From the NCBI GenBank assembly GCA_023399095.1, contig JAEWQS010000006.1, forward strand, positions 4,550-68,549: a stretch of DNA of 64,000 nt, in the 5' to 3' direction. Each line of letters opens with the position of its first letter. The stretch's first letter is position 1. Shown here piece after piece: positions 26,681 through 42,980 of the stretch. Source of the stretch: Bacillota bacterium. GTDB taxonomy: Bacteria; Bacillota; Clostridia; Christensenellales; SZUA-584. The translations under genes were made by a program, and so were the position numbers. Under the pieces are notes generated by a model. That model worked only from the letters and a program-made list of their open reading frames with translations, searched no databases and was not told the DNA's origin.

Positions 26681-27624
26681 ATGAGCGAACAGGACAAGCC
26701 GTCTAAAGCGTTATCTGCCCGCTGCGCTTATCAGCTTGCGGACGTAGAGAAAACTGCGCCCCAATACATATCCATCAGTCCCAGATGGCTGACAAGATTT
26801 TTGGAATGGAAACCGCTTGAGTCGGGCATATTCCGGCTAAACAAGGTGAGAAAAGGTAAGAACTGTTGGAGACGCTGTGCGCCCAGTCTAACGGAGAAGA
26901 TATTCCGGAAGGCTATATTGACTATGAACCGGAGCCCCGCGAATATATTTTAACTTCCGTATCATCCATAATAAAAATCGAGACACGCGTGTCTGATATT
27001 TACAGCAAGCCATATGATCAGATAAAGGAGCAGCTGCGGCTCGGCATGGAGAGCATCAAGGAAAAACAGGAAAGCCTCATCATAAACAGCGATGATTACG
27101 GCCTGCTCAACAACATCGACGATTCACAAAGAATCAAAACGCGAGATGGGTCCCCCACGCCGGATGATCTTGATGAGCTTATCGCCAAGGTGTGGAAGCA
27201 GCCGTCTTTCTTTCTTGCGCACCCTGCCGCCATTGCCGCGTTTGGTCGCGAGTGCACACACCGCGGCGTGCCGCCGGTGGCTGTTAACCTTCATGGCTCC
27301 CCTTTCATCACATGGCGCGGCATTCCGCTTGTGCCCACTGATAAGCTTTTGGTAGACGGGCAAAGAAAGCCGTTTGGGGCAAAAGGAAAAACGAATATTT
27401 TGCTTATTCGCAGCGGTGAAGCCAATCAGGGTGTTATCGGTTTGTATCAGACGGGATTGCCCGGAGAACAGTCACGCGGTATGTCTGTGCGGTTTATGGG
27501 TATCAACAATCAGGGGATCGGTTATTACTTGCTGTCTATTTATTGTTCGGCGGCCATTTTAGCTGACGACGCTATCGCTGTTCTTGAGGACGTCGAAATC
27601 GGAAACTACTATGATTATCAATAA
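26681..27624 (+). pseudogene. Family 2A encapsulin shell protein (HK97 fold); reading frame interrupted by an apparent 1-nt frameshift between 26860 and 26892
   Basis: The frame-A ORF starts at ATG 26681 (AAGGAGA upstream) and gives ...SPRWLTRFLEWKPLESGIFRLNKV..., then stops at 26951-26953. The -1 frame is open from 26860 and gives ...GEDIPEGYIDYEPEPREYIL...RVSDIYSKPYDQIKEQLRL...WRGIPLVPTDKL.... Joined length is about 314 aa. There is no cNMP-binding insert. Confidence 0.75.
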
Positions 27625-29086
27625 TGATCTGGAAGAAATAGAGAGTGGTGCGTTTAATCAGGATACGCTCATAAGGGAATCGGTCGCTTCGCTGGCCAAA
27701 ATGTATTTCCCCGAATTTAATGTGCCTCGTTCTCAAACCTCCGAACCGGCAATCGAATCGGCAGATTTATTTGCCGATCCAATTCGCATCACTCCCCTGC
27801 TTCGATGGGACAAAGAAGAAACAACTTTGGACAGAAAAGAAGACTTGGATTTTACGCGCCAAGACTTTCCTATTCTTTCTGAACGAATAAACGATCATCC
27901 GCTTGTCTGGTTAGATAACGCCGCGACCACTCAAAAGCCTCAATGCGTAATCGACAGAATCAAGTCGTTTTACGAGCATGAAAACTCGAACGTACATCGC
28001 GGTGCGCATACGCTTGCCAAAAGAACGACAGATGCTTATGAAGACGCACGCGCCAAAGCCGCCGTTTTTCTCAATGCCTCTAAGCCCAAAGAGATTGTTT
28101 TTGTTCGCGGCACCACAGAAGCCATTAACCTTGTGGCGCATTCGTACGGTCTCACCCATCTGGATGAAGGCGATGAAGTGCTTATCACGCAGCTGGAACA
28201 CCATGCCAATTTCGTGCCATGGCAGATCGTCTGCGCCAAAACAGGCGCAAAGCTTAAGGCGTCGCCGGTTAACGAGCATGGGCAAGTTGACTTGGCAGCG
28301 TTTGAAAAGTTGCTCAACAGCAAGACAAAGATGGTGGCCATCACGCATGTGTCCAACGCGATTGGCACAATAACTCCTGCTGCTCAAATGATACGAATGG
28401 CGCACGAATATGGCGCCAGAGTGCTGGTGGACGGTGCACAGGCGGTGGCGCATCTGGCGGTGGATGTACAGGCGCTGGATTGCGATTTTTACGTATTTTC
28501 GGGTCATAAAGTATTCGGCCCCACGGGCATTGGGATTCTGTATGCAAAATCCAAGTTGCTTGATGAGATGCCGCCCTATCAGGGCGGCGGCAGCATGATC
28601 GAGGATGTTTCGTTAGAAAGCACAAAATATAAAGCCCCTCCCCACCGTTTTGAAGCGGGAACGGGCAATATCGCGGGTGCAATAGGGCTTGGCGCGGCGC
28701 TTGATTATGTCAGGTGCGTGGGGCTTGATCGTATCGAGCAATACGAACAACGCTTGCTCACACTCGCTATTAAGTCTTTGGAAAGTGTCCCGGGTCTTAA
28801 GTTCATAGGCAAGCCGCAAACAGGAATCGTTTCGTTTTTACTGAATGACGTTTCTCCGGATGAAGTCGGAAAGCGGCTCGACGAGAAAGGCATTGCCGTC
28901 CGTGCGGGCCACCACTGCGCCCAGCCCATACTACGGCATCTCGGCTATGAAAGCACCGTCCGTATGTCGCTTGCCTTTTACAACACACGATCTGAAATTG
29001 ACCGTCTTGCAAACGTACTTAAGAACACCGGCAAAGCCACATCGTATTGGACTTTTCCGCCTATTCCTCCAGCAATGCCTGATTAA
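27611..29086 (+). CDS. SufS/type II cysteine desulfurase with an ~80-aa N-terminal extension (encapsulin cargo type)
   Basis: PLP lysine in FSGHKVFGPTGIG, catalytic Cys in RAGHHCAQP, and LDNAATTQKP near the core N-terminus. The N-terminal extension contains SLAKMYFPEF. The ATG overlaps the shell gene end by 14 nt. Confidence 0.85.
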   Translation: MIINNDLEEIESGAFNQDTLIRESVASLAKMYFPEFNVPRSQTSEPAIESADLFADPIRITPLLRWDKEETTLDRKEDLDFTRQDFPILSERINDHPLVWLDNAATTQKPQCVIDRIKSFYEHENSNVHRGAHTLAKRTTDAYEDARAKAAVFLNASKPKEIVFVRGTTEAINLVAHSYGLTHLDEGDEVLITQLEHHANFVPWQIVCAKTGAKLKASPVNEHGQVDLAAFEKLLNSKTKMVAITHVSNAIGTITPAAQMIRMAHEYGARVLVDGAQAVAHLAVDVQALDCDFYVFSGHKVFGPTGIGILYAKSKLLDEMPPYQGGGSMIEDVSLESTKYKAPPHRFEAGTGNIAGAIGLGAALDYVRCVGLDRIEQYEQRLLTLAIKSLESVPGLKFIGKPQTGIVSFLLNDVSPDEVGKRLDEKGIAVRAGHHCAQPILRHLGYESTVRMSLAFYNTRSEIDRLANVLKNTGKATSYWTFPPIPPAMPD

Positions 29087-30290: not shown

Positions 30291-30968
30291 TTATGTTTTA
30301 AAAATGTAACCATATCCCCAAACAGTCTCTAAAAACTTATGGTATGGTTTGATATTTTCGCGGAGTGTCTTTATATGCGTATCCACAGTGCGATCCGTGC
30401 CGAAGAAATCCTCTCCCCAGACCTCTCTTAATATCATATCTCGGGAAAAAGCACGATTGTGGTTTTTGGCAAGAAAAACAAGCAGTTTGTATTCCTTGGG
30501 CGTTAATAGTATGCCTTCTCCTTCCACATAAACCACATGTGAAATAACATCAATACACAAGCCGTCGAAAATGAGCCGCCGCGGTGTATATTCTTCATGA
30601 TGGGCGCTGTGGCGCAGCAAAACATGAATACGCGCCATAAGCACCTTGCACGAATATGGGATGTTTAAAAAGTCATCCACGCCAAGATCGAAGAAAAAAA
30701 GCTTTTGTTCTTCGCTGCCGTTCCTGGACAATATGATGATTGGCGTCTGAGAGCTTTTGCGAATCTGCCGGCACACAAGCCATGCATCCAGCTCGGGAAG
30801 CTCCGCATTCATCACAATAATATGATAGTCATGACGCCTAAACATTTTTAGTGCGGCGATACCGTCGGCGGCTTCGTCAACGACAAAGTTCTCAAGTGCT
30901 GCGTGTGTTTTTACCGTTGCTCTCAAATCTGCTGCCGGATCGACGACCAATAAGCTAATATCACTCAT
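30291..30968 (-). CDS. Orphan OmpR/PhoB-family response regulator with a degenerate (aspartate-less) receiver domain
   Basis: The C-terminal winged helix (LTPKEYKLLVFLA...VDTHIKTLR.KI.......TVWGYGY) is intact. In the receiver, the phospho-acceptor position reads IIVMNAELP (Asn) and the conserved Lys position reads LNIPY (Ile). Confidence 0.8.
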   Translation of the reverse strand: MSDISLLVVDPAADLRATVKTHAALENFVVDEAADGIAALKMFRRHDYHIIVMNAELPELDAWLVCRQIRKSSQTPIIILSRNGSEEQKLFFFDLGVDDFLNIPYSCKVLMARIHVLLRHSAHHEEYTPRRLIFDGLCIDVISHVVYVEGEGILLTPKEYKLLVFLAKNHNRAFSRDMILREVWGEDFFGTDRTVDTHIKTLRENIKPYHKFLETVWGYGYIFKT

Positions 30969-31278: not shown

Positions 31279-31791
31279 ATGAGCACAAAACCTGTTAAAG
31301 CCAAGCAAGGCTGCTGCAAGGAATGCAATGATGACAAATTCGCAGCCATTGCCAACGTCATTGATTTGTACAAGGACAAGGAAGGAAGCCTGATACAGAT
31401 CCTCCATCTTGCCCAGCAGATCTATGGATATCTGCCGCTGGAGGTTCAGATCTTCATCGCGGATTCGCTTAAAGTTCCGCTGTCCGAGGTATCCGGGGTG
31501 ATTACATTTTACTCGTTTTTCTCCACTGAGCCAAGAGGACGCCATACCATTCGCGTCTGCCTTGGAACAGCTTGCTACGTAAGAGGCGGCAAAAAAATTG
31601 TGGAAAGCCTCAAGGAAAAGCTGGACGTGGATATTGGCTCCACAACCAAGGATGGTAAATTCACTTTTGAGGTTGCAAGATGCATTGGCGCTTGCGGGCT
31701 TGCTCCGGCCATGATGATAGACGACGTTGTCTACAAACAGGTTAATGTTAACAAACTCAATTCAATATTGGCCAAATATGATAACGAATAA
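31279..31791 (+). CDS. NuoE/HydC-like [2Fe-2S] thioredoxin-fold subunit
   Basis: Cys pattern VCLGTACYVRG...CIGACGLAP. GGAGG lies upstream. Confidence 0.85.
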   Translation: MSTKPVKAKQGCCKECNDDKFAAIANVIDLYKDKEGSLIQILHLAQQIYGYLPLEVQIFIADSLKVPLSEVSGVITFYSFFSTEPRGRHTIRVCLGTACYVRGGKKIVESLKEKLDVDIGSTTKDGKFTFEVARCIGACGLAPAMMIDDVVYKQVNVNKLNSILAKYDNE

Positions 31792-31804: not shown

Positions 31805-34800
31805 ATGAAATCAGCCAGAATAAAGACAATTGACCAGCTAAACGAGATCAAGGAAAGATACAATTCCGAGCTGGAAAAATATAAATATCGGATATTCGTC
31901 TGCGCAGGCGCAGGCTGCGTCTCGTCTAACTGCTCTCTTGTCCGGGATGCAGTCATCAGTGAGCTTAAGAACGTCAAAATGCAGGATGAAGTTAAAGTGT
32001 TTGAAACCGGTTGTATGGGAACATGCGCGGTTGGCCCTGTCATGCTTGTGATGCCGGATAAGGTTTTCTACACAGAGCTTGATGAGGATAAAGCGCGTCA
32101 GATCGTCCGCACGCATATCAAAAACGGCCATACCATCGTCCCTTACACGTTCTATGACCATTCGCTTGGCGAACATATTCCAAACATCGACGACATCGGT
32201 TTCTTTAAAAAGCAGGTCAAAATCGCTCTGCGCAACTGCGGCTCCATGGAATACGCGGACATTGAAGCCTATATTGCACGGGACGGCTATTACGCCGCTT
32301 ATAAAGCGCTAAAGGATATGACACCGCAGACAGTCGTACAGGAGGTCAAAACGTCGGGCATCAAGGGGCGCGGCGGTGCAGGCTTCCCCACAGGCGTAAA
32401 ATGGGATGCGGCTCATAAGCAGCAAAGTGAAAGCAAGTATATCGTATGCAACGCGGACGAGGGTGATCCAGGCGCTTTCATGGACAGAAGCATTATCGAG
32501 GGTGATCCCCATACCGTCATCGAAGGCATGCTGATCGGTGGATATGCCATTGGAGCCACAACGGGTTACATCTACGTGCGTGCTGAGTACCCCATCGCGG
32601 TAGACAGAATGACGGCGGCACTGGATGAAGCGAGAAACAGAGGTTTGCTCGGGAAAAACATATTCGGGAGCGGCTTTTCATTTGATATCGAGCTAAGAAT
32701 CGGCGCGGGCGCTTTTGTATGCGGTGAGGAAACATCGCTGATGGCGTCTATTGAAGGCCATCGCGGCGAGCCAAAGCAAAAACCGCCTTTCCCGTTCCAA
32801 AGAGGTCTTTTCGGCAAGCCGACCATCATAAACAATGTCGAGACGCTGGCGAGCATACCGATGATCATACTCAGCGGCGGCGAGTGGTACACACAGTTCG
32901 GCACCGAAAAGAGCAGAGGCACAAAAGTCTTTGCGCTTGCGGGTGACGTCATGAACACGGGTATCGTTGAAGTGCCCATCGGCATACCGCTTGGCGATAT
33001 CATATTCGAAATCGGAGGCGGAACCGTCAACAAGAAGAAATTCAAATCCGCGCAGATCGGCGGACCTTCGGGCGGCTGCATCACGACGGATAATCTCAAC
33101 GTACCGACAGACTACGAACCGTTAAAGGAGCTGGGTGCGATTATGGGCTCGGGCGGGCTTATCGTTATGAACGAGGATACCTGCATGGTCGATACCGCAC
33201 GGTTTTTTATGGATTTTATCAAGGATGAATCCTGCGGCAAATGTACGGCCTGTCGTATCGGCACCAAACGCATGCTTGAGATACTCGAGCGTATCACACG
33301 GGGCGAAGGTGAAGAAGGCGATGTGGAGCTGCTCATCGAGCTTGGCGAGACAATTCAGGAGACAGCCATGTGCGGCCTCGGTCAGACGGCGCCGAATCCT
33401 GTGCTTTCCACCATCAAGTATTTCCGCGAGGAATATGACGAGCACATCAGAAACAAATACTGCCGCGCGGGTGTGTGCAGCGATCTGTTCATTTCGCCGT
33501 GTGAGAATACGTGCCCCGCCAATGTCAACGTGCCGGGTTATATGTCGCTTATCGCCGCAGGACGGTTCACCGATGCGTATAAGCTGATCCGGCAGGAAAA
33601 CCCCTTCCCTGCCGTTTGCGGACGAATCTGCACACGGCCATGCGAAAGCAAATGCCGTAGGCGCACGGTCGACGAAGCGCTGGCCATTTGCGATCTCAAG
33701 CGGTTTGTCGCCGACTACGCAATGAATAATGGTAAAAATGCGTATCAGACCGATGTTGTGTTCCCGAAAAACGGGAAGAGTATTGCAGTGATCGGCGCGG
33801 GCGCGTCGGGGCTGACGTGCGCGTATTATCTTGCGCGTATCGGTTATGATGTGGATGTATTTGAATCGCATAACACAGCAGGCGGCGTGCTGGCATATGG
33901 CATTCCCGAATACCGTCTGCCCAAGGACGTGCTTGACTATGAAGTCAGGCTCATCGAACAGGCGGGTGTCAAAATTCATTTAAATACTGAGGTGGGGCGT
34001 GATATCACGTTCAAAGAGCTCAAAGCGACATATGACGCGATTTATATCGCAACGGGTACGCAATTGCCGCAAAAAATCAATGTGCCCGGAGAGAGCCTTC
34101 CAGGCGTTATGCATGGCATCAAGTTTTTAAAGAAAGCCAACACGCACTCTCCCATCGAAATGGGCAAAAACGTGGTCGTCATCGGCGGCGGCAATACGGC
34201 GATAGACTCCGCAAGGACAGCGCTGCGTTTGGGAGCGGAAAAGGTGACGATACTGTACAGGCGCACCTGTGATTCAATGCCGGCGTACGAGCAGGAAATA
34301 CGTGAAGCCGTGGAAGAAGGCATTGAGATCATATCACTTGCTGCACCCGTGCGCTTCATTCAGGGCGCTGATGGACGCATATCAAAAATCGAATGTATCA
34401 AGATGTGCCTTGGCGATTTCGATGCGTCTTGCCGCAGGCGCAGCGTTTACGTGGAGGATTCAAATTTCTTCATTGATGCCGATATGGTCATACCTGCTGT
34501 CAGCCAGTTTGCAGATTTCCCGTTTATCGGAAAAGACGAGATTGGCCTGACGCCTTGGGGCACGTTTATACTGCAAAGCGATACGCAGATGACCACGATG
34601 GATGGCGTATTCGCTGGCGGCGATGTCACCCGCGGGCCTGACGAGGTGATACGCGCGATTGCGGACGGTAAAAAAGCAGCAATTTCAATCGACAAATATC
34701 TTGGCGGCAAAGGCCATCTCAATAAGGGTGAACCAATTGACATTCCCGAAACCACGGATGAAGACGACATCGTGGCTCATGGCCGGTTTGATCTTGAGAT

Positions 34801-34909
34801 ACTTGATCCGAAAACACGTAAATATTCATTCGACGAAGTGATTAAGGGTTACCATAAGCTCAATGCGATGGCAGAAGCGATGCGCTGTCTGCATTGTGAA
34901 AGGAGGTAG
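31805..34909 (+). CDS. Fusion protein of a NuoF/HydB-like FMN/NADH subunit (N-terminal ~550 aa) and a GltD/NfnB-like FAD/NAD(P)H oxidoreductase (C-terminal ~480 aa)
   Basis: N-terminal 2Fe-2S thioredoxin-like domain (CAGAGC...CMGTC). NuoF motifs are GRGGAGFPTG, NADEGDPGAFMDR and ESCGKCTACRIG. These are followed by GltD-type Cys motifs (CENTCP...CGRICTRPCESKC), IAVIGAGASGL (FAD) and VVVIGGGNTAID (NADPH). ATG at 31805 follows AAGGAGGTGA. Confidence 0.85.
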   Translation: MKSARIKTIDQLNEIKERYNSELEKYKYRIFVCAGAGCVSSNCSLVRDAVISELKNVKMQDEVKVFETGCMGTCAVGPVMLVMPDKVFYTELDEDKARQIVRTHIKNGHTIVPYTFYDHSLGEHIPNIDDIGFFKKQVKIALRNCGSMEYADIEAYIARDGYYAAYKALKDMTPQTVVQEVKTSGIKGRGGAGFPTGVKWDAAHKQQSESKYIVCNADEGDPGAFMDRSIIEGDPHTVIEGMLIGGYAIGATTGYIYVRAEYPIAVDRMTAALDEARNRGLLGKNIFGSGFSFDIELRIGAGAFVCGEETSLMASIEGHRGEPKQKPPFPFQRGLFGKPTIINNVETLASIPMIILSGGEWYTQFGTEKSRGTKVFALAGDVMNTGIVEVPIGIPLGDIIFEIGGGTVNKKKFKSAQIGGPSGGCITTDNLNVPTDYEPLKELGAIMGSGGLIVMNEDTCMVDTARFFMDFIKDESCGKCTACRIGTKRMLEILERITRGEGEEGDVELLIELGETIQETAMCGLGQTAPNPVLSTIKYFREEYDEHIRNKYCRAGVCSDLFISPCENTCPANVNVPGYMSLIAAGRFTDAYKLIRQENPFPAVCGRICTRPCESKCRRRTVDEALAICDLKRFVADYAMNNGKNAYQTDVVFPKNGKSIAVIGAGASGLTCAYYLARIGYDVDVFESHNTAGGVLAYGIPEYRLPKDVLDYEVRLIEQAGVKIHLNTEVGRDITFKELKATYDAIYIATGTQLPQKINVPGESLPGVMHGIKFLKKANTHSPIEMGKNVVVIGGGNTAIDSARTALRLGAEKVTILYRRTCDSMPAYEQEIREAVEEGIEIISLAAPVRFIQGADGRISKIECIKMCLGDFDASCRRRSVYVEDSNFFIDADMVIPAVSQFADFPFIGKDEIGLTPWGTFILQSDTQMTTMDGVFAGGDVTRGPDEVIRAIADGKKAAISIDKYLGGKGHLNKGEPIDIPETTDEDDIVAHGRFDLEILDPKTRKYSFDEVIKGYHKLNAMAEAMRCLHCERR

Positions 34910-34915
34910 TCAGAT

Positions 34916-36940
34916 ATGATTAATTTGCAGATTAACGGCCGCTCGGTGACGGTACCCGAGGACTACACAATCATGGAAGCAGCTAAAACTGTGGGAATTA
35001 AAATTCCCGGGCTTTGCCAAATGGACGGTGTACACCAGTTTGGCTCCTGCCGCATTTGTGTTGTGGAGGTCAAAGGCGCGAAAACACTGCAGGCGTCATG
35101 CCTGGCAAAGGTCGCCGAAGGCATGATTGTGGATACAAATACGGCAAAGGTGAGAAACGCACGGCGCGTGCTCTATGAGCTGCTGCTTTCCGATCATGAT
35201 AAGGACTGCTTAAGCTGTACGAGAAACCAGAGCTGTGAGCTTCAGGAGCTTGGAAAAGTTCTCGGTGTGAGCGAATCGCGCTTCGACGGCGAACACTCGG
35301 AATTTAATCTTGACTCCTCCGTATCCATTACACGCAATATGTCAAAATGCGTGCTGTGTAGGCGCTGCGTCACTGTCTGCAACGAGATTCAGGGAACAGG
35401 AATACTCAACGCGCAGAATCGCGGGTTCCAGACTGTGATTGGCCCAGCGATGGATTTAAAGCTGGGCACCGTCAACTGCGTATTCTGCGGACAGTGTACG
35501 GTGGTTTGTCCGGTGGGTGCGCTCAAGGAAACCGATGCCATACAGCCTGTTTGGAAAGCACTCAGCGACGAGAAAAAAAGATGTGTGGTGCAGGTGGCTC
35601 CTGCAATTCGTGTGGCGATTGGTGAAGAGTTTGGGTATGAACCCGGCGCGCGCGTAACAGGCAAGCTTGCGCAGGCGCTTTCCACGCTGGGGTTCGATGA
35701 CATTTTCGATACGAATTTCACCGCTGACCTTACGATTATGGAGGAAGGCACCGAATTTTTGACACGTGTGAAAAAAGCGTTGACGGGAGGCGAAGCCATG
35801 CTGCCGATGATTACATCGTGCAGCCCGGGCTGGATCAAATATATCGAGCATTCATATCCTGACCTTCTCCCCCATCTGTCAACGTGCAAATCGCCGCATA
35901 CCATGCTGGGTGCGTTGGTCAAATCGTTCTATGCTGAAAAGATCGGCTGCGATCCAAAAGACATGTACGTGGTGTCGGTGATGCCGTGTACCGCCAAGAA
36001 GTTTGAGATCAGCCGTCATGAGATGTGCAATAATGACGTTCCCAATGTGGATGCGGTGCTCACAACAAGAGAGCTTGGGCAAATGGTACGTGAAGCCGGT
36101 ATCGACTTTACTTTGCTGGAAGATCGTGAGTTTGATAATCCGCTTGGCATGTCGACAGGCGCTGCTGATATTTTCGGCGTCACAGGGGGCGTCATGGAAG
36201 CTGCGCTGCGTACCGTATATGAGCTTGTTACAGGGCGCGAACTGCCGTTTGACAAGCTGCATGTCGCACCGATTGTAGGCTTGGAACAAATAAAAACAGC
36301 TGAGATCAAGATTGAAGATACACTGCCGGATTATAAATTCCTGGAAGGCGTTGTCGTGAAGGTGGCTGTGACGAGCGGCCTTTCAGGCGCGAAGATACTC
36401 ATGGATCAAATTAAAAATGGAGAATCACCTTACCACTTTATTGAGGTGATGGGCTGCCCCAATGGATGCATTATGGGCGGCGGACAACCGAGATCCAAAG
36501 ATCCGGATGTAAGGACAAAACGTTTTCAGGGTATTTATGACGAAGATGAAGCCAAGGTCATGCGCAAATCGCATGAGAATCCTTCTGTCAAAAAGCTTTA
36601 TGAAGAGTATCTGGAATTCCCAAACAGCCATGTGTCACACAAACTGCTGCATACGCATTATGTCAAACGCGGACGGTTTAATGAGTTCCTGGAGGACGAA
36701 TATGTGAATGAAGAGGTGATTCCTATGGCGGAAAAGAACAAAGCATCTGCCAAGCAGACGCAAAAAAAAACGGCTCAGGAGCGCGCATCCAGACGGGTTC
36801 ATGAGGACTTAGAGTCGGTCAAAGTCATGTCCTTGGAGGCTGAGGTAACCCGGCTCAAACAGGAATTATCCGATTCTCAGGAAACTGTCGAGATATTAAA
36901 AGATGTGATGAGCGATTACGCTAAAAAGCCCAAAAGATAA
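34916..36940 (+). CDS. hydA: [FeFe]-hydrogenase large-subunit-like protein (M3-type F-cluster N-terminus) with variant P1 motif TSCSPGW and an ~88-aa C-terminal coiled-coil extension
   Basis: N-terminal plant-type 2Fe-2S (CQMDG...GSCRICVVEV), His-ligated 4Fe-4S and 2x CxxCxxCxxxCP. H-cluster motifs are P2 VMPCTAKKFE and P3 EVMGCPNGCIMGGGQP. P1 reads TSCSPGW, whereas the canonical motif is TSCCPxW. Confidence 0.85.
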   Translation: MINLQINGRSVTVPEDYTIMEAAKTVGIKIPGLCQMDGVHQFGSCRICVVEVKGAKTLQASCLAKVAEGMIVDTNTAKVRNARRVLYELLLSDHDKDCLSCTRNQSCELQELGKVLGVSESRFDGEHSEFNLDSSVSITRNMSKCVLCRRCVTVCNEIQGTGILNAQNRGFQTVIGPAMDLKLGTVNCVFCGQCTVVCPVGALKETDAIQPVWKALSDEKKRCVVQVAPAIRVAIGEEFGYEPGARVTGKLAQALSTLGFDDIFDTNFTADLTIMEEGTEFLTRVKKALTGGEAMLPMITSCSPGWIKYIEHSYPDLLPHLSTCKSPHTMLGALVKSFYAEKIGCDPKDMYVVSVMPCTAKKFEISRHEMCNNDVPNVDAVLTTRELGQMVREAGIDFTLLEDREFDNPLGMSTGAADIFGVTGGVMEAALRTVYELVTGRELPFDKLHVAPIVGLEQIKTAEIKIEDTLPDYKFLEGVVVKVAVTSGLSGAKILMDQIKNGESPYHFIEVMGCPNGCIMGGGQPRSKDPDVRTKRFQGIYDEDEAKVMRKSHENPSVKKLYEEYLEFPNSHVSHKLLHTHYVKRGRFNEFLEDEYVNEEVIPMAEKNKASAKQTQKKTAQERASRRVHEDLESVKVMSLEAEVTRLKQELSDSQETVEILKDVMSDYAKKPKR

Positions 36941-36960: not shown

Positions 36961-36990
36961 AAAAGCCGGTTATGTGCCGGCTTTTACTTT
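36961..36990 (+). terminator. Rho-independent terminator after the hydrogenase operon
   Basis: Stem AAAAGCCGG/CCGGCTTTT with a 7-nt loop and a T-rich tail. It overlaps the 3' end of the convergent gerA-family gene. Confidence 0.6.
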
Positions 36991-38450
36991 TCATTTTTTT
37001 CGTTTTGTATCGGCGCTCGCGTATTGTCCTTGTTTCTTAAATATGCGGGGCGATGTGGGGCGATAGACTTGCTGTACACAATTGATTTGAGAAAATCTCG
37101 CATGTTAAATGGTGCAGCAGGCGCCATATATGGCACGCCGAACGTGTTAATGGATACAAGATGTGAAATAATAAGGACAACGACGAGAGTAAATCCATAA
37201 AAGCCAAATGTACCTGATGCGATGATTAACAAGAATTTTAAAATGCGAAACGGATTAACAATCATGTAGTCAGACGGTACGAAAGACGCGATAAGGGACA
37301 TCGAAATAACGATTAACAGCAGCGGGCTGAATACTCCCGCTGAAACCGCAGCTTGACCGATAATAATTGCCCCGACGATACCTATAGCAGTACCGATTTT
37401 GGTGGGTACTCGAATCAACGATTCTCTGATCAGTTCGCCGATTGTTTCAATAAGCAGCACTTCAATCAGCGCATTGAACGGCACCTTTGCCCGGCTTTCA
37501 GCTATAGCGATCATGTAGGTTCCGGGCAACACATCGTTGTGGAAGGATACAATTGCCACGTAAATAGAGGAAACAGCAAAAGAGATGTTGAGAGAAATGA
37601 CCCGTAGAATCCTCATGAATGTGCCAAAGTATTTATTGGCATAAAAATCATCGCATGACCATATATATTCGCTGAACACCTTTGGCGCGACAAGCGCCCA
37701 TGGACTGCCATCCATGATAATGACAACCTTGCCTTCTAAAATAGCTCCGCATGCCATATCCGAGCGCTCAATAATTCCCATCTGAGGGAAAATGCTTCTC
37801 TGATTGTTAAGCAGATACGATTCTAGTTCGCCCGAGGAAACAAGCCCGTCAACATCAACTTTTGATATTCTTTTCTTGATTTCGGTTATACAAGTATTGT
37901 TGGCGACATCTTCAAGATAAAGAATCGCAATACTTGTTTTTGTTCTCCTGCCCACTTTCATGCTTTCAACACGCAAATTCTCGTCCTTTATTCGGTACCT
38001 AACAAGCGAGAGATTGGTATCAAGATTTTCAATGAATGCGTCTCTTGGCCCTCTTATCGTGTAGGTAAACTCAGGAACAGGGATAGCACGTTTCTCAACT
38101 TTTTTAATATCCATGACCAGGTATTGGTTATCAGAGGAGAATAAAGCGACTGTCATGCCGCTCAATATGTATTGCTCAATTTTCGCTTTATCTGAATCCA
38201 GCGTGCATTGGCTGGCGCTGACAATATTCGCCGCATCGGCGGCTTTCACATTCGTCTGCCCATTAGTTGCTGCAAGTGGCTTTATGACATACTCTGATAT
38301 TCCCGTTAGATCGGTGAGTTCTTTAATATAAAACAAAGAGATAGATTCAGATTTTAACGAGATCGTTCGTTGTACAACATCCATGTTCTTTTCTCTGATT
38401 GCGCTGATTATGTTCTCATATCTTATGTTCTGATTGTTCTGCCTCTGCAT
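36984..38450 (-). CDS. Spore germination protein, GerA family A subunit
   Basis: 488 aa with the typical soluble N-domain and a C-terminal 5-TM region (PLLLIVISMSLIASF...). Last gene of a B-C-A operon. Confidence 0.85.
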   Translation of the reverse strand: MQRQNNQNIRYENIISAIREKNMDVVQRTISLKSESISLFYIKELTDLTGISEYVIKPLAATNGQTNVKAADAANIVSASQCTLDSDKAKIEQYILSGMTVALFSSDNQYLVMDIKKVEKRAIPVPEFTYTIRGPRDAFIENLDTNLSLVRYRIKDENLRVESMKVGRRTKTSIAILYLEDVANNTCITEIKKRISKVDVDGLVSSGELESYLLNNQRSIFPQMGIIERSDMACGAILEGKVVIIMDGSPWALVAPKVFSEYIWSCDDFYANKYFGTFMRILRVISLNISFAVSSIYVAIVSFHNDVLPGTYMIAIAESRAKVPFNALIEVLLIETIGELIRESLIRVPTKIGTAIGIVGAIIIGQAAVSAGVFSPLLLIVISMSLIASFVPSDYMIVNPFRILKFLLIIASGTFGFYGFTLVVVLIISHLVSINTFGVPYMAPAAPFNMRDFLKSIVYSKSIAPHRPAYLRNKDNTRAPIQNEKNEK

Positions 38451-38460
38451 TAATTCTCCT

Positions 38461-39600
38461 CTATTTAGCGAGTTTCTGGCCCATTGTTTCGAAATCCATC
38501 ATGTTCCCCATCAAAAGATTGGACTCGGCCGATACTGTGAAACTTGCATTCAAATAAGTATCTTTCCAATTGATATTTTTCAGCACATTCGGATATTTAA
38601 TGCGAAAATGTTCTTTAAACTGTAGATAGTCGCACTGCACTTCTTTTGAATGCATGAGAGCTTGTGATATATCCCCCAATATCGCATTCAGCAGGTTTTG
38701 CGTCACGTCTTTTTGAATGTGTTCATCAAACTTGGTATTCTTGCTAAGATACATAACCTTGGATTCAAACTTAAATTTTAAATCAAACTTCAATTTCCCA
38801 TTTTCGTAAGTTGGTTTATACTTTTTAATTTTTAGAGTTACCTCTATTGTTGCTTCACTGTCATCAAACGGAATCACATACAAACGTTTTATGTTATCTC
38901 CTAAAATCCAGACAAGACCTCTTGACTGTTCTACAGGGATAAAATCTATAAGTTTGTTTTCATGAAAAACGGTAAAACCGTTGTATGTAAGTACACCATC
39001 TTCAACATCCAAATTGGGTAGCACAAAGCATGTATTGCTGTAGATAAACTCAAGCAAGTCCGAAACCGTGTATACGTGTATCTTCTCCAACGCCTTTAGA
39101 CTCTTGATAGTGTCATCAATGGATTCTCCAATGGACACATTATTTGGCGGCTGAACAGCTAGAATATCTTCTGGGCTCGAAAAGGATGTCACAACATTGA
39201 GCGTTTTTCTGTACTGCACATCCGATTGCATACGCAGCATATACTCCTCTATGCCAGCCTTTCCGAGATCGTCAGTAATTACAAGCGCTTTTACAGTACC
39301 TAAAAAAATAGGATTGTCTGTTTTTGCATTTAAATGCCTCCTTGCGTCCGCAAAAGTTGTACCCTTAGCATATATCATTTGGTAGCTTTTTTTACTTGCA
39401 TAGTCTCCAATACCTGGCTGATTCTGTCCTTGGCCTAAATTCGGGGATTCTATATAAAAAGCAAAATCATCATCCTGTTTATCTGAAATAACAGTGACAA
39501 CCAGCGTTTTGTTATTGACATCCATTGAATCCCAGCATCCCGATCCCACAAATAAAAAGCCAATTATTAAGAAGATACACGATGCTATTTTAAGACGCAT
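38461..39600 (-). CDS. Ger(x)C family germination lipoprotein
   Basis: Lipobox FVGSGCWD, with size and pattern typical of GerAC-type proteins. It overlaps the upstream B subunit by 11 nt. Confidence 0.8.
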   Translation of the reverse strand: MRLKIASCIFLIIGFLFVGSGCWDSMDVNNKTLVVTVISDKQDDDFAFYIESPNLGQGQNQPGIGDYASKKSYQMIYAKGTTFADARRHLNAKTDNPIFLGTVKALVITDDLGKAGIEEYMLRMQSDVQYRKTLNVVTSFSSPEDILAVQPPNNVSIGESIDDTIKSLKALEKIHVYTVSDLLEFIYSNTCFVLPNLDVEDGVLTYNGFTVFHENKLIDFIPVEQSRGLVWILGDNIKRLYVIPFDDSEATIEVTLKIKKYKPTYENGKLKFDLKFKFESKVMYLSKNTKFDEHIQKDVTQNLLNAILGDISQALMHSKEVQCDYLQFKEHFRIKYPNVLKNINWKDTYLNASFTVSAESNLLMGNMMDFETMGQKLAK

Positions 39601-40699
39601 TTCTTTTGCCTTTCTTTTGAACTTTTCTTATTTTTGCCAGAAACAATAGGCATACCGGAATCACAAAGCAGGTCATAAGACCTAAATATGTACCAATATC
39701 CTCAACGAATTGTTCATATTTGGCCAAGTCTTTCACAAGGAAGAATATGATGTAAGTTATAATCCCAATAATTGTTATAATCATTGACTTTTTAATGTTA
39801 TTAAAAATACGACTTAAATACTCTGCGATAACAGCAATAACAATGGAGAAACCCACAAAAAGAGCGCTAAAACCGATTGTCAGATATAAAATGTCCATCC
39901 TTGTGAAAATTACTATCTTTTCAGGAGAAGTATCGCGAATAGCCACAATCAGAGCATCTTTGAAATTAACAATATCATTGAGTCCAACCTTCATTATGCA
40001 GCTTTCGACCAAAAAGATATAAAACAAACCGATAAACATAATTGTTAGAAATGCTGTTCTTTTTGCTTTTTTGCCGTTTTTTTTGGTTAGTGGAATAGCC
40101 AGCAGCAACTCGATTCCTAAAAAAGGAAATATTGAGTATTTAAAAGCTTCGACATAGTTTTTAATTTCAGCTGCATTAAAAAAAGGCTGTATGCGACTAA
40201 TCTTCCCTTGAGATACCATAATTAAATGCACAAAAATAGCAGTAATAATAAAAACAACGCCGATGAGCTCTGCCAATCGGCTGACGTTTGTGATTCCTTT
40301 ATTGGCAATAAAGCAGAAAACAGGTATGCCTATAAGAGGGAAAGACCAAAGCGGCGTCTGCGGAAAAAAATCCGCCTTAAGAAGGCGGGCGTTCATTGTG
40401 ACTAAATAAACGACAATGAAAAAAAAGTACATTACATAAAAAATAACAACGATGTATGTTGCTGGTTTACCAATGATTTGAGGCGCATATTCAAACAACA
40501 TCTTTCCCTGAAACATGCTGTTAAGACTAACTATAATCACAGCGGCCACGCCGAAAATGAGCGCCGTTAATATAAGTGTTATCCAATTTCCCGTTCCTGC
40601 GCTCTCAGCCATCACTTTAGGTATCACAATGACGCTGTAGCATGTCAACGTGATAATGAGAACCATGACCATCTGCCTGTTCGTTATGCTGTTCATCAA
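39590..40699 (-). CDS. Spore germination permease, GerAB/APC-superfamily B subunit
   Basis: 369 aa, about 10 TM helices, N-terminal ITNRQM motif typical of GerXB proteins. Confidence 0.8.
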   Translation of the reverse strand: MMNSITNRQMVMVLIITLTCYSVIVIPKVMAESAGTGNWITLILTALIFGVAAVIIVSLNSMFQGKMLFEYAPQIIGKPATYIVVIFYVMYFFFIVVYLVTMNARLLKADFFPQTPLWSFPLIGIPVFCFIANKGITNVSRLAELIGVVFIITAIFVHLIMVSQGKISRIQPFFNAAEIKNYVEAFKYSIFPFLGIELLLAIPLTKKNGKKAKRTAFLTIMFIGLFYIFLVESCIMKVGLNDIVNFKDALIVAIRDTSPEKIVIFTRMDILYLTIGFSALFVGFSIVIAVIAEYLSRIFNNIKKSMIITIIGIITYIIFFLVKDLAKYEQFVEDIGTYLGLMTCFVIPVCLLFLAKIRKVQKKGKRNAS

Positions 40700-41576: not shown

Positions 41577-42980
41577 TTACCTTAAACTTTTTAGCGTGAT
41601 GATAAACGAACATCCATTGTTGTTATTTTCGAGGCGAATGCTGCCGCCGTGCGCGGCAACGATCTTATTCACAATAGCCAAACCAAGGCCGGTTCCTTGT
41701 GTGCTTCTTGCGGCATCCCCCCTGACAAACGGATCAAAAATGTGATCGGTGAGATTGTCAGGTATGCCGCCCCCATTATCGCTATATGATATTTGGATTT
41801 CATCATTTTGTTTTGATAAATAGATAACAATATGTGTGCCCTTGGGCGTGTGCTGCAATGTGTTAGCCGTGAGGTTTTGTATCATTCGCTGCATATGTGT
41901 CATGTCAATATCAGCAAAAATTTCTTCTTCGGGAATATGGACTTCGTACGTATATCCTGACTGCTCGAGCTGAGGGACAATCTCTCCGATCTGCTGGCGC
42001 AAAAACTCGCATACATCTATATGTGAAATTTGAAGCTTGAAATCAGGGCTATCCATCTTAGAAAGCTCGAACATATCAATAATCAGATTGTTTGCTCTCA
42101 AGCTGTTCTGATATATTGTTTGCAAAAAGGCCCGCTGCTGCTCGTCGTTTATATTATTGTCGCGAATCAAAAGCTCAGCATATCCCATCGTGTTGGCAAG
42201 CGGCGTTTTTAGATCGTGTGAGATATCCGCGATAAGCTTCTTGCGGTTGTTTTCGGACTGCTCTTTCATCGCTGTTTCTTCTTCAATCTGCTCGGCCATA
42301 TCGTTGAAAGCGTCTTGGATGTCTTTGAATTCATTTTTTAGCTTAAAGTCAACACGTGTGGAATAATTGCCGTTGCGGAAAAGCTGTACACTCTCGCTTA
42401 GTTGACGCAAAGGCTTGATTATGCCAATGGATGATAATTTGGAATAAACAAAGGTGACGATGGTAAGCATCAACAAATAAAATAGCACAACGGCAACTAT
42501 CGCGGTCGTTACCCCTTCTGAATCCTTGGAAGCATATTCTGTGTTATGCGCGATCGCTATATCGATGCGGACTGATGTCGGAAACGTGATAACCAACCAA
42601 AAGTTTTTGTTTTCGTTATATGCGATGTTATAACTGTACGGAATGCCGATGCGCTGACTTTCTGTGAGTAATTCAGTAAGCTCCGACATCGTTAATTGTT
42701 CTTGGTCAATCGTATCTATACCTTCTGAAAGCACGATGTTCCCCTTTTGATCAATCACCTGAGCGCCGCCACCGTTCTCTATGACGGGGGTAAAGTTAAT
42801 ACTCTCATAGTCGTCCTGCATAAGACTTTGCGCCGTAAAACTATTTTTTTTCAGCGTCATCTCAAGAACATTGCCCGCGAACGATAGCAGAAAGAACGCA
42901 CATAAAGAAAGAATGGCGGAGATGATAAACATGAGAAAATAGTTTGCCAAAAACTGATTGGAGATTTTTCTTTTCATCAT
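41577..42980 (-). CDS. Sensor histidine kinase (2 TM, HAMP, HisKA, HATPase_c)
   Basis: H-box ISHDLKTPL, N-box QNLTANTLQH, G-boxes DNGGGI and GTGLGLAI. Confidence 0.88.
   Translation of the reverse strand: MMKRKISNQFLANYFLMFIISAILSLCAFFLLSFAGNVLEMTLKKNSFTAQSLMQDDYESINFTPVIENGGGAQVIDQKGNIVLSEGIDTIDQEQLTMSELTELLTESQRIGIPYSYNIAYNENKNFWLVITFPTSVRIDIAIAHNTEYASKDSEGVTTAIVAVVLFYLLMLTIVTFVYSKLSSIGIIKPLRQLSESVQLFRNGNYSTRVDFKLKNEFKDIQDAFNDMAEQIEEETAMKEQSENNRKKLIADISHDLKTPLANTMGYAELLIRDNNINDEQQRAFLQTIYQNSLRANNLIIDMFELSKMDSPDFKLQISHIDVCEFLRQQIGEIVPQLEQSGYTYEVHIPEEEIFADIDMTHMQRMIQNLTANTLQHTPKGTHIVIYLSKQNDEIQISYSDNGGGIPDNLTDHIFDPFVRGDAARSTQGTGLGLAIVNKIVAAHGGSIRLENNNNGCSFIITLKSLR

Follow-up and report, generated by a model that had tools for sequence, protein, structure and literature searches.

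The [FeFe]-hydrogenase catalytic subunit (HydA) encoded in the window, as we call the whole 64,000-nucleotide stretch of DNA analysed here, carries a serine at the position where canonical enzymes have a cysteine ligand of the [4Fe-4S]H subcluster. By analogy with a characterized homologue, this residue, Ser303, is likely a natural fourth protein ligand of [4Fe-4S]H in an assembled, catalytically competent H-cluster. In nature, few [4Fe-4S] clusters have a serine ligand; the one at issue here belongs to the H-cluster, the active-site cofactor of a catalyst that ranks among the fastest for H2. The exchange is nonetheless already known as a published trait of active NAD(P)H-linked [FeFe]-hydrogenases and is no new discovery; a more open question than the serine is the uncharacterised HydC/HydB-GltD/HydA complex itself.

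Sequence, fold and register of HydA

The gene and the residues that bear on the H-cluster are as follows:
34916..36940, + strand: hydA, M3-type [FeFe]-hydrogenase catalytic subunit of 674 aa with a C-terminal extension (Pfam, NCBIfam, AlphaFold)
35744..35881, + strand: proton-transfer residues E277, E280, R284 and S322 (CpI E279, E282, R286 and S319), all conserved
35813..35833, + strand: P1/L1 motif TSCSPGW, hydA codons (residues) 300-306 of the 674-aa ORF
35819..35821, + strand: Cys302 (TGC), retained equivalent of the CpI proton-relay cysteine C299
35822..35824, + strand: Ser303 (AGC), at the [4Fe-4S]H ligand site (position of CpI C300 and A. woodii Ser301)
35981..36007, + strand: P2 motif MPCTAKKFE, residues 356-364, canonical, with Cys358 equivalent to CpI C355
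36443..36490, + strand: P3 motif EVMGCPNGCIMGGGQP, residues 510-525, canonical, with Cys514 equivalent to CpI C499 and the bridging Cys518 to CpI C503
36674..36937, + strand: Cys-free C-terminal extension, residues 587-674, with a long helix predicted at 620-669

HydA has the Pfam domains Fer2_4, NADH-G_4Fe-4S_3, Fer4 domains, Fe_hyd_lg_C and Fe_hyd_SSU, and its H-domain is matched by PF02906 at 2.6e-94 and PF02256 at 1e-24. It scores 505 bits against TIGR02512 (cutoff 406) and 865.5 bits, over profile positions 1-571, against NF040763, 'NADH-dependent [FeFe] hydrogenase, group A6' (cutoff 765), a profile that gives 810-881 bits to representatives of the Ser type and 687-769 bits to those of the Cys type. 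The AlphaFold model (pLDDT 87) superposes on 8a6t_A and 7q4w_A with target-normalised TM-scores of 0.96 and 0.93, and the predicted fold thus matches that of HydA of HydABC. The C-terminal extension is discernible only in closer orthologues.

The P1 motif reads ACA TCG TGC AGC CCG GGC TGG, that is, T-S-C-S-P-G-W. Its register was defined by a MAFFT alignment of 335 sequences including CpI, in which C302 falls on CpI C299 and S303 on CpI C300 without gaps; HMMER alignments to solved structures gave the same register. For CpI we used what we take to be its sequence, the numbering of which agreed at C299, C300, C355, C499, C503, E279, E282, S319 and R286. The consensus P2 (MPCxxKxxE) and P3 (ExMxCxxGCxxG) are matched by MPCTAKKFE and EVMGCPNGCIMG, and E277, E280, R284 and S322, together with C302, make up the complete proton pathway of group A HydA. 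A preliminary description of this DNA had given the same P1 codons, called P2 and P3 canonical and placed the serine on the cubane-ligand site by a gapless alignment, and our analysis bears out all three points, with the relay cysteine kept.

Group A enzymes carry TSCCPxW, with a relay and a ligand cysteine; here the relay cysteine is present and the ligand cysteine is replaced by Ser303. Active enzymes that naturally carry TSCSPGW have been documented, so this deviation does not exclude membership of group A. Thermoanaerobacter kivui HydA (8A6T) and C. pasteurianum CpI, both canonical group A enzymes, share with the window HydA the fold (TM-score 0.93-0.96), P2, P3, the proton pathway and the 2Fe pocket, but their cubane is ligated by T. 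kivui Cys299 or CpI C300 of a TSCCPxW motif. We also considered a sensory HydS of groups C/D and rejected it, as the protein has kept its relay cysteine and proton pathway and contains no PAS domain.

Conservation and distribution of the serine

TSCSPGW is present in 120/120 of the nearest protein clusters, the closest database homologues, and in all 80 species-representative genome loci, which span several phyla at 61-96% identity. The loci fetched numbered 85 (the 80 genome loci and five contigs). With paralogues counted, these loci contain 94 gene copies, every one with TSCSPGW, and in these 94 the motif serine is encoded by AGC (51), AGT (28), TCG (5), TCA (5), TCT (3) and TCC (2). All six serine codons, and hence both serine codon families, therefore occur at the ligand position, which stays serine throughout with no drift to Ala, Gly or Thr.

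Since TGC and AGC differ by one base, a sequencing or assembly error, or damage specific to this strain, could have produced the same reading. The chance of this is negligible: the serine recurs in all of the nearest clusters and in 80 independent species-level genomes, it is drawn from both codon families, and it stands in the sequence of a solved structure. The conservation among orthologues excludes an error, and TSCSPGW is, on this comparative evidence, a real feature. The comparison with orthologues proposed in the preliminary description thus came out as uniform TSCSP.

The same description spoke of a GltD-fused clade. In the window GltD is fused to HydB, not to HydA, and the serine, although universal in the HydB-GltD-fused clade, is not confined to it. 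Five loci encode a second Ser-type HydA beside a short HydB without GltD, and A. woodii HydB also lacks GltD, which led us to reject a restriction of TSCSP to complexes with a GltD fusion.

Among the best 150 representatives of 50%-identity clusters, ~25 had [TS]SCSPxW and ~98 the canonical CC motif. The serine share in these sampled close HydA clusters, about one fifth, is similar to a published value: a passage of Kertess et al. 2017 (PMC5855289) that cites Winkler 2013 puts serine at the ligand position in ~20% of the putative hydrogenases analysed. We computed a crude neighbour-joining tree from H-domain alignments that lacked the two motif columns; the clade that holds the window HydA has 111 tips, of which 110 are Ser-type. 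A further 6-9 Ser-type representatives lie outside this main clade and one Cys-type sequence (P0127) lies inside it; strict monophyly of the Ser type is accordingly not supported by this tree, which shows one large, near-pure clade and 6-9 scattered representatives that may have arisen independently or may be noise in the tree. The exchange of cysteine for serine is an ancient, fixed trait of a large group A clade that forms the core of NCBIfam 'group A6' and includes A. woodii HydA1, and the members of this clade work in NuoE/NuoF-type (HydABC) complexes.

Ligation of the H-cluster

In A. woodii HydA1, Ser301 is reported to replace cysteine as a cubane ligand of the H-cluster, in an active enzyme with normal FTIR signatures (Katsyv et al. 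2023, PMC10021017). The H-cluster states of the A. woodii HydABC complex, Hhyd and HoxH among them, are those typical of catalysis, and its activities are typical as well (PMC10021017). Structures are available as 8A5E (3.4 Å), 7Q4W and 7Q4V; the 3.4 Å map cannot prove an Fe-O(Ser) bond. Our literature search returned no follow-up study on the serine ligand beyond Katsyv et al. 2023. A. woodii HydA1 (7q4v_A) is the best PDB match to the window HydA, with an identical, gaplessly aligned TSCSPGW, ~50% identity overall and a target-normalised TM-score of 0.93; compared with it, the window HydA has an extra helical C-terminal tail of ~88 aa.

On this model, Ser303 would bind [4Fe-4S]H, presumably as a serinate oxygen, Cys302 would stay the proton relay to the adt bridge, and Cys358, Cys514 and Cys518 would complete the ligation of the cubane, the last of them as the bridge to the 2Fe site. 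All three of these cysteines are intact in the window HydA, as are its proton pathway and 2Fe pocket, so that an active Ser-ligated H-cluster is the most likely arrangement. Our analysis shows the motif with its register and conservation, the intact state of the other H-cluster determinants and the operon architecture; serine ligation, normal FTIR and activity come from the literature on the 50%-identical A. woodii homologue, and we infer the same for the window HydA. Ser303 may also have a redox-tuning role. Ligation of the cubane by serine was among the options raised in the preliminary description, and it agrees with the report for A. woodii HydA1. The natural variant had also been put forward there as functionally informative: the motif is real, but the variant is not new, having been published for A. 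woodii (Katsyv 2023) and for ~20% of analysed sequences (Kertess 2017).

Engineered enzymes are harder to reconcile with serine ligation. CrHydA1 C115S (mature numbering; C170 in the precursor) loses most of its [4Fe-4S], takes up no 2Fe and is inactive (PMC5855289). This, rather than the relay-position Cys-to-Ser changes cited in the preliminary description, which concern the neighbouring residue, is the relevant precedent. The natural clade, with this exchange at the equivalent ligand site, is subject to strong purifying selection, and its A. woodii member is active; we found no substitution across the clade that would compensate for the serine. After thinning to 62% identity (17 Ser-type versus 85 Cys-type clusters), no other alignment column separated the two types. 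At the sole further column with a frequent cysteine, that of window C324 (CpI position 321), 63% of Cys-type sequences have Cys as well. We rejected W213, H312, V434, S504, E543 and H328 as Ser-linked columns, since they differed only before thinning and reflect lineage signal from over-sampled orthologues.

What is retained in the Ser-type sequences bears on two other ways of reading the motif. C302, C358, C514, C518, E280, R284 and M356 are kept in 227/227 Ser-type sequences, as are M512, K361, P229, A228, P327 and E364, and E277, S322 and F420 are kept in 226/227 (335-sequence alignment). One reading is a shift of register: Cys302 would ligate the cubane next to a bystander Ser303, and without its canonical proton relay, or with another in its place, the enzyme would be slow or sensor-like. 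The neighbouring relay cysteine was indeed suggested as a substitute ligand in CrHydA1 C115A (Kertess 2017, PMC5855289), and the 3.4 Å A. woodii cryo-EM map is compatible with a small local rearrangement. Such a shift is nevertheless improbable here: near-invariance of E277, E280, R284 and S322 would be unexpected if the relay were unused, the invariance of serine over six codons is not what a bystander would show, sensory HydS features (a PAS domain, loss of the relay cysteine) are missing, and A. woodii HydABC passes through Hhyd and HoxH with typical activities (PMC10021017).

The other reading, of an electron-transfer scaffold without an H-cluster, similar to NfnA/StnA or Nar1-type proteins, is less probable still. 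It draws on the inability of CrHydA1 C115S to hold the cubane (PMC5855289), but P2, P3, the whole 2Fe pocket and the proton path are strictly conserved, the HydA-like similarity of NfnA/StnA is limited to the N-terminal Fe-S region and leaves the H-domain unmatched, and a homologue with the same motif has a spectroscopically normal H-cluster (PMC10021017). A second point in favour of a scaffold is that none of the 20 ORFs scanned in the 64-kb window is hydE, hydF or hydG. These maturase genes are often unlinked, however, and 64 kb is too little to conclude that they are absent, so this result is uninformative. The earlier suggestions that the relay is lost or that no H-cluster is formed thus fit poorly with residues each of which is missing from at most one of the 227 Ser-type sequences, and ligation by Ser303 remains our preferred explanation.

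The hydCBA operon and the HydB-GltD fusion

The genes upstream of hydA, and the end of the operon, are as follows:
31279..31791, + strand: hydC, NuoE/HoxE-like thioredoxin-type [2Fe-2S] subunit of 170 aa (NCBIfam NuoE/HoxE matches)
31805..34909, + strand: hydB-gltD fusion encoding 1034 aa (Pfam, NCBIfam and PDB matches)
36961..36985, + strand: terminator-like hairpin closing the hydCBA operon (from a consensus scan only)

AAGGAGG precedes the hydB-gltD ATG at 31805, and related loci have a hydC-like gene at the same position. HydB-GltD consists, in order, of an N-terminal [2Fe-2S] domain, a NuoF FMN/NADH module with a [4Fe-4S] site, and a GltD-type module made up of 2x[4Fe-4S] Fer4_20 and FAD/NAD(P)H Pyr_redox_2. 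Over residues 28-562 it aligns to A. woodii HydB (7q4v_B, 599 aa), and over residues 564-1031 to GltD modules of the StnA/NfnA type; orthologues are 1034-1040 aa long. Across several phyla, at least 72 species-level genomes encode the HydC/HydB-GltD/HydA complex.

As in bifurcating HydABC complexes (Bfu family), HydC (NuoE-like) and HydB (NuoF-like, with an N-terminal [2Fe-2S]) adjoin hydA. The M3 architecture and adjacent NuoE-like and NuoF-like genes are shared with the bifurcating A. woodii HydABC(D), whose HydB is the best PDB match to the HydB core. A. woodii HydB, however, has a C-terminal ferredoxin-like 2x[4Fe-4S] domain, which has been proposed as the ferredoxin site. This domain is missing from the window HydB, in which the alignment to 7q4v_B ends at chain residue 542 of 599 and the protein continues as Fer4_20 and Pyr_redox_2, a GltD FAD/NADPH module of ~470 aa. 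Because this module replaces the ferredoxin-like domain, the complex probably couples H2/H+ to pyridine nucleotides by electron exchange, using NAD(H) at the FMN site and NADP(H) at the FAD site of GltD.

Stn and NfnABC transhydrogenases of the Bfu family (8OH5, 9BOV, 9N5U) likewise combine a NuoE/NuoF-type core with a GltD-type NADPH module, and the GltD part of the window protein scores 350-410 bits against StnA/NfnA. In Stn/Nfn, GltD resides in an A subunit without an H-domain match, whereas in the window it is on the B subunit and the A subunit has a complete H-domain. In the HydDB classification, a group A HydA with a GltD-domain neighbour resembles A2 (glutamate-synthase-linked, putative), which is functionally uncharacterised, and a NuoF-domain neighbour resembles A3 (bifurcating). 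The A2 rule is GltD without NuoF, but the window neighbour has both domains in one polypeptide, which places the enzyme between A2 and A3. On HydB-GltD fusion hydrogenases, our literature search found only Stn/Nfn and the HydDB classification rules.

A tentative extension, which we think rather unlikely, is that the serine is an adaptive tuner of the redox properties or bias of [4Fe-4S]H specific to NuoF-wired HydA, and that the GltD-fused complex is an uncharacterised class that may couple H2 directly with NAD(H) as well as NADP(H), acting either as a hydrogen-coupled transhydrogenase or as a ferredoxin-independent H2:NAD(P)+ oxidoreductase.

The exchange that kills engineered CrHydA1 is fixed by selection in about one fifth of the sampled close HydA clusters, and in A. 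woodii the enzyme that carries it is fully active. What makes the natural serine tolerable, and how it affects potential, catalytic bias and O2 sensitivity, are worthwhile questions that the published enzymes had already raised; the window contributes one more orthologue to them and no new phenomenon. Its added value lies in quantifying the universality of the serine in the GltD-fused lineage, in separating the serine from the fusion, and in pointing to the HydB-GltD complex.

The hyd operon and its neighbourhood

In the window, hydC, hydB-gltD and hydA form a tight three-gene operon on the forward strand, with the following features.

31279..31791, + strand: hydC, encoding a NuoE/HoxE-like [2Fe-2S] protein
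31805..34909, + strand: hydB-gltD, 1034 aa, with AAGGAGG upstream of its ATG
34916..36940, + strand: hydA, 674 aa, last gene of the operon
36674..36937, + strand: HydA C-terminal extension (residues 587–674), Cys-free and Lys/Glu-rich
36961..36985: terminator-like hairpin downstream of hydA

Two-component systems lie on both sides of the operon (30291..30968 and 41577..42980). A GerA/GerAC/spore-permease germination-receptor operon (36984..40699, − strand) is convergent to hydA and marks an endospore-forming host; a close relative (locus L003) lacks the ger operon at the corresponding position. The source is an uncultured Christensenellales-like spore-former, and when each GTDB species was searched through a single genome, the closest was MAG OH_PBB_253 (96% identity). 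At 26866..29086 (+ strand), the gene for a type 2A encapsulin shell protein (SrpI-like; PF19307 at 1e-95) runs into the start of a second gene, which encodes a 500-aa class-V aminotransferase/cysteine desulfurase with an N-terminal extension of ~107 aa; the two look like an encapsulin–cargo pair in a Clostridia-type genome.

Serine in the P1 motif of HydA

Codons 300–306 of hydA (35813..35833; ACA TCG TGC AGC CCG GGC TGG) encode TSCSPGW, and P2 (MPCTAKKFE, residues 356–364) and P3 (EVMGCPNGCIMGGGQP, residues 510–525) are canonical, exactly as the preliminary description had it from the DNA and translation. Its gapless placement of serine on a ligand position of the [4Fe-4S]H cubane was borne out by a MAFFT alignment of 335 H-domains including CpI, which had no gap around P1: Cys302 aligned with CpI C299, the proton relay, and Ser303 with the cubane ligand C300, the remaining three ligands being Cys358, Cys514 and Cys518. 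HMMER alignments to solved structures gave the same register. In the CpI sequence aligned, C299, C300, C355, C499, C503, E279, E282, R286 and S319 match published numbers.

The preliminary description had left conservation to a comparison with orthologues, and these proved uniform: TSCSPGW was present in 120/120 of the closest 90%-identity clusters (69–96% identity to the window HydA). The species-level scan yielded 80 loci (61–96% identity) from Christensenellales, Oscillospiraceae, other Bacillota, Sumerlaeota, Armatimonadota, Bacteroidia, Spirochaetota and Haloplasmataceae; together with five separately fetched contigs and counting paralogues, every HydA copy carried the motif (94/94 genes). 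Their serine codons were AGC (51), AGT (28), TCG (5), TCA (5), TCT (3) and TCC (2), and this use of both codon families shows long-term selection for serine itself. The motif is thus real and under selection; conservation in homologue clusters and species-level loci rules out a sequencing error at Ser303.

A distance tree of H-domains, computed without the two motif columns, placed the window HydA in a clade of 111 tips, 110 of which were Ser-type (serine at the CpI C300 position), and scattered another 6–9 Ser-type representatives among Cys-type ones. The only TSCCPGW sequence inside the clade, P0127, may have reverted from Ser to Cys, or its placement may be an artefact of the tree. Against NCBIfam NF040763 ('NADH-dependent [FeFe] hydrogenase, group A6'; cutoff 765), the window HydA scored 865 bits and Ser-type representatives 810–881, versus 687–769 for Cys-type ones, so the family is centred on the Ser clade. 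One CC-type representative, P0121, predicted at 4122 aa, matches the HydA H-domain at seven separate places, and may be several hydrogenases strung together in one gene model, or an artefact of assembly or gene calling.

Probable serine ligation of a catalytic H-cluster

The feature is already known, with structure, spectroscopy and a stated frequency published. The best PDB match to the window HydA was Acetobacterium woodii HydA1 (7q4v_A, also 7Q4W and 8A5E; E = 7e-185), which reads LPMITSCSPGW at residues 294–304 and belongs to an active bidirectional hydrogenase with a reduced-state structure at 3.4 Å; in it Ser301 is reported to take the place of the Cys ligand of the cubane, with normal FTIR signatures (Katsyv et al. 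2023, PMC10021017). TSCSPGW was also noted in Melainabacteria hydrogenases (Di Rienzi et al. 2013). In CrHydA1 the same ligand (C115 mature, C170 precursor, CpI C300) has been mutated: the C115S, C115A and C115D variants held little [4Fe-4S], did not incorporate the 2Fe site and showed no activity (Kertess et al. 2017, PMC5855289). The authors, with reference to Winkler et al. 2013, judged this surprising because serine occupies this position in ~20% of aligned sequences. Our own share agrees: when 1.84 billion cluster representatives were searched exhaustively with HMMER, the best 150 included ~25 with [TS]SCSPxW and ~98 with the canonical CC form.

In its remaining residues the site is catalytic. 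The relay Cys, E280, R284, M356, M512, K361, A228, P229, P327 and E364 were conserved in 227/227 Ser-type sequences, and E277, S322 and F420 in 226/227 (CpI equivalents of scored residues: E279, E282, R286, S319, M353, M497, K358, A230, P231, P324, E361 and F417), a pattern consistent with an active H-cluster and a functional proton path. The preliminary description had offered three readings. That the remaining Cys became the cubane ligand, with loss of the relay, is disfavoured by this near-invariance of the relay Cys, proton path and 2Fe pocket; that no H-cluster is assembled is likewise argued against by the retained catalytic residues. A Ser-ligated cubane, with the active A. woodii homologue as precedent, is the best supported reading. 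When the AlphaFold model of HydA (pLDDT 87.4) was superposed on T. kivui HydA, A. woodii HydA and CpI, the target-normalised TM-scores were 0.93–0.96.

No extra conserved Cys compensating for the serine was found among Ser-type sequences of the H-domain alignment, and no other column separated the types after redundancy thinning (17 Ser-type versus 85 Cys-type clusters), so sequence alone leaves unexplained why the natural serine works and CrHydA1 C115S fails. Cys324 (35885..35887; CpI position 321), two positions beyond Ser322 of the proton pathway, was conserved in 98% of Ser-type versus 63% of Cys-type H-domains, making it enriched, not specific.

The HydB-GltD fusion

Residues 28–562 of HydB match A. 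woodii HydB, but from about residue 555 the window protein carries a complete GltD module where bifurcating HydB has a ferredoxin-like C-terminal domain. The module comprises Fer4_20, with two [4Fe-4S] sites, and Pyr_redox_2, a domain that binds FAD and NAD(P)H; it scored 350–410 bits against the GltD parts of the transhydrogenase subunits StnA and NfnA. HydDB assigns A2 to enzymes with a GltD neighbour lacking NuoF and A3 to those with a NuoF neighbour; with both in one chain, the window enzyme is intermediate between them. Descriptions of A2 still call it uncharacterised, and our literature search found no biochemical study of a HydC/HydB-GltD/HydA complex.

HydC and the fusion were present in 72/72 loci with sufficient upstream DNA, across several phyla; of the other scanned loci, five were truncated within the GltD part and three lacked upstream DNA. 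Serine is thus universal in the GltD-fused lineage, yet not confined to it, because A. woodii HydB (599 aa) lacks GltD although its partner HydA1 is Ser-type, and five loci (L072, L075, L079, L080 and L083) have, directly downstream (~5.9–10.5 kb, locus coordinates), a second operon of HydC', a short HydB' (~400 aa) that lacks GltD, and a HydA' with TSCSPGW. At three further loci (L045, L046 and L059), Ser-type HydA occurs twice with no second HydB visible.

The HydA extension was recognisable only in some closer orthologues, down to ~69% identity, and most orthologues at or below ~75% identity are ~590 aa and lack it. AlphaFold predicts a helix of ~50 residues (620–669) within it. The extension may serve in oligomerisation or docking.

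The window contributes one more orthologue of a published feature. The GltD-fused complex would link H2/H+ to NAD(H), bound at the FMN site, and to NADP(H), bound at the FAD site of GltD.
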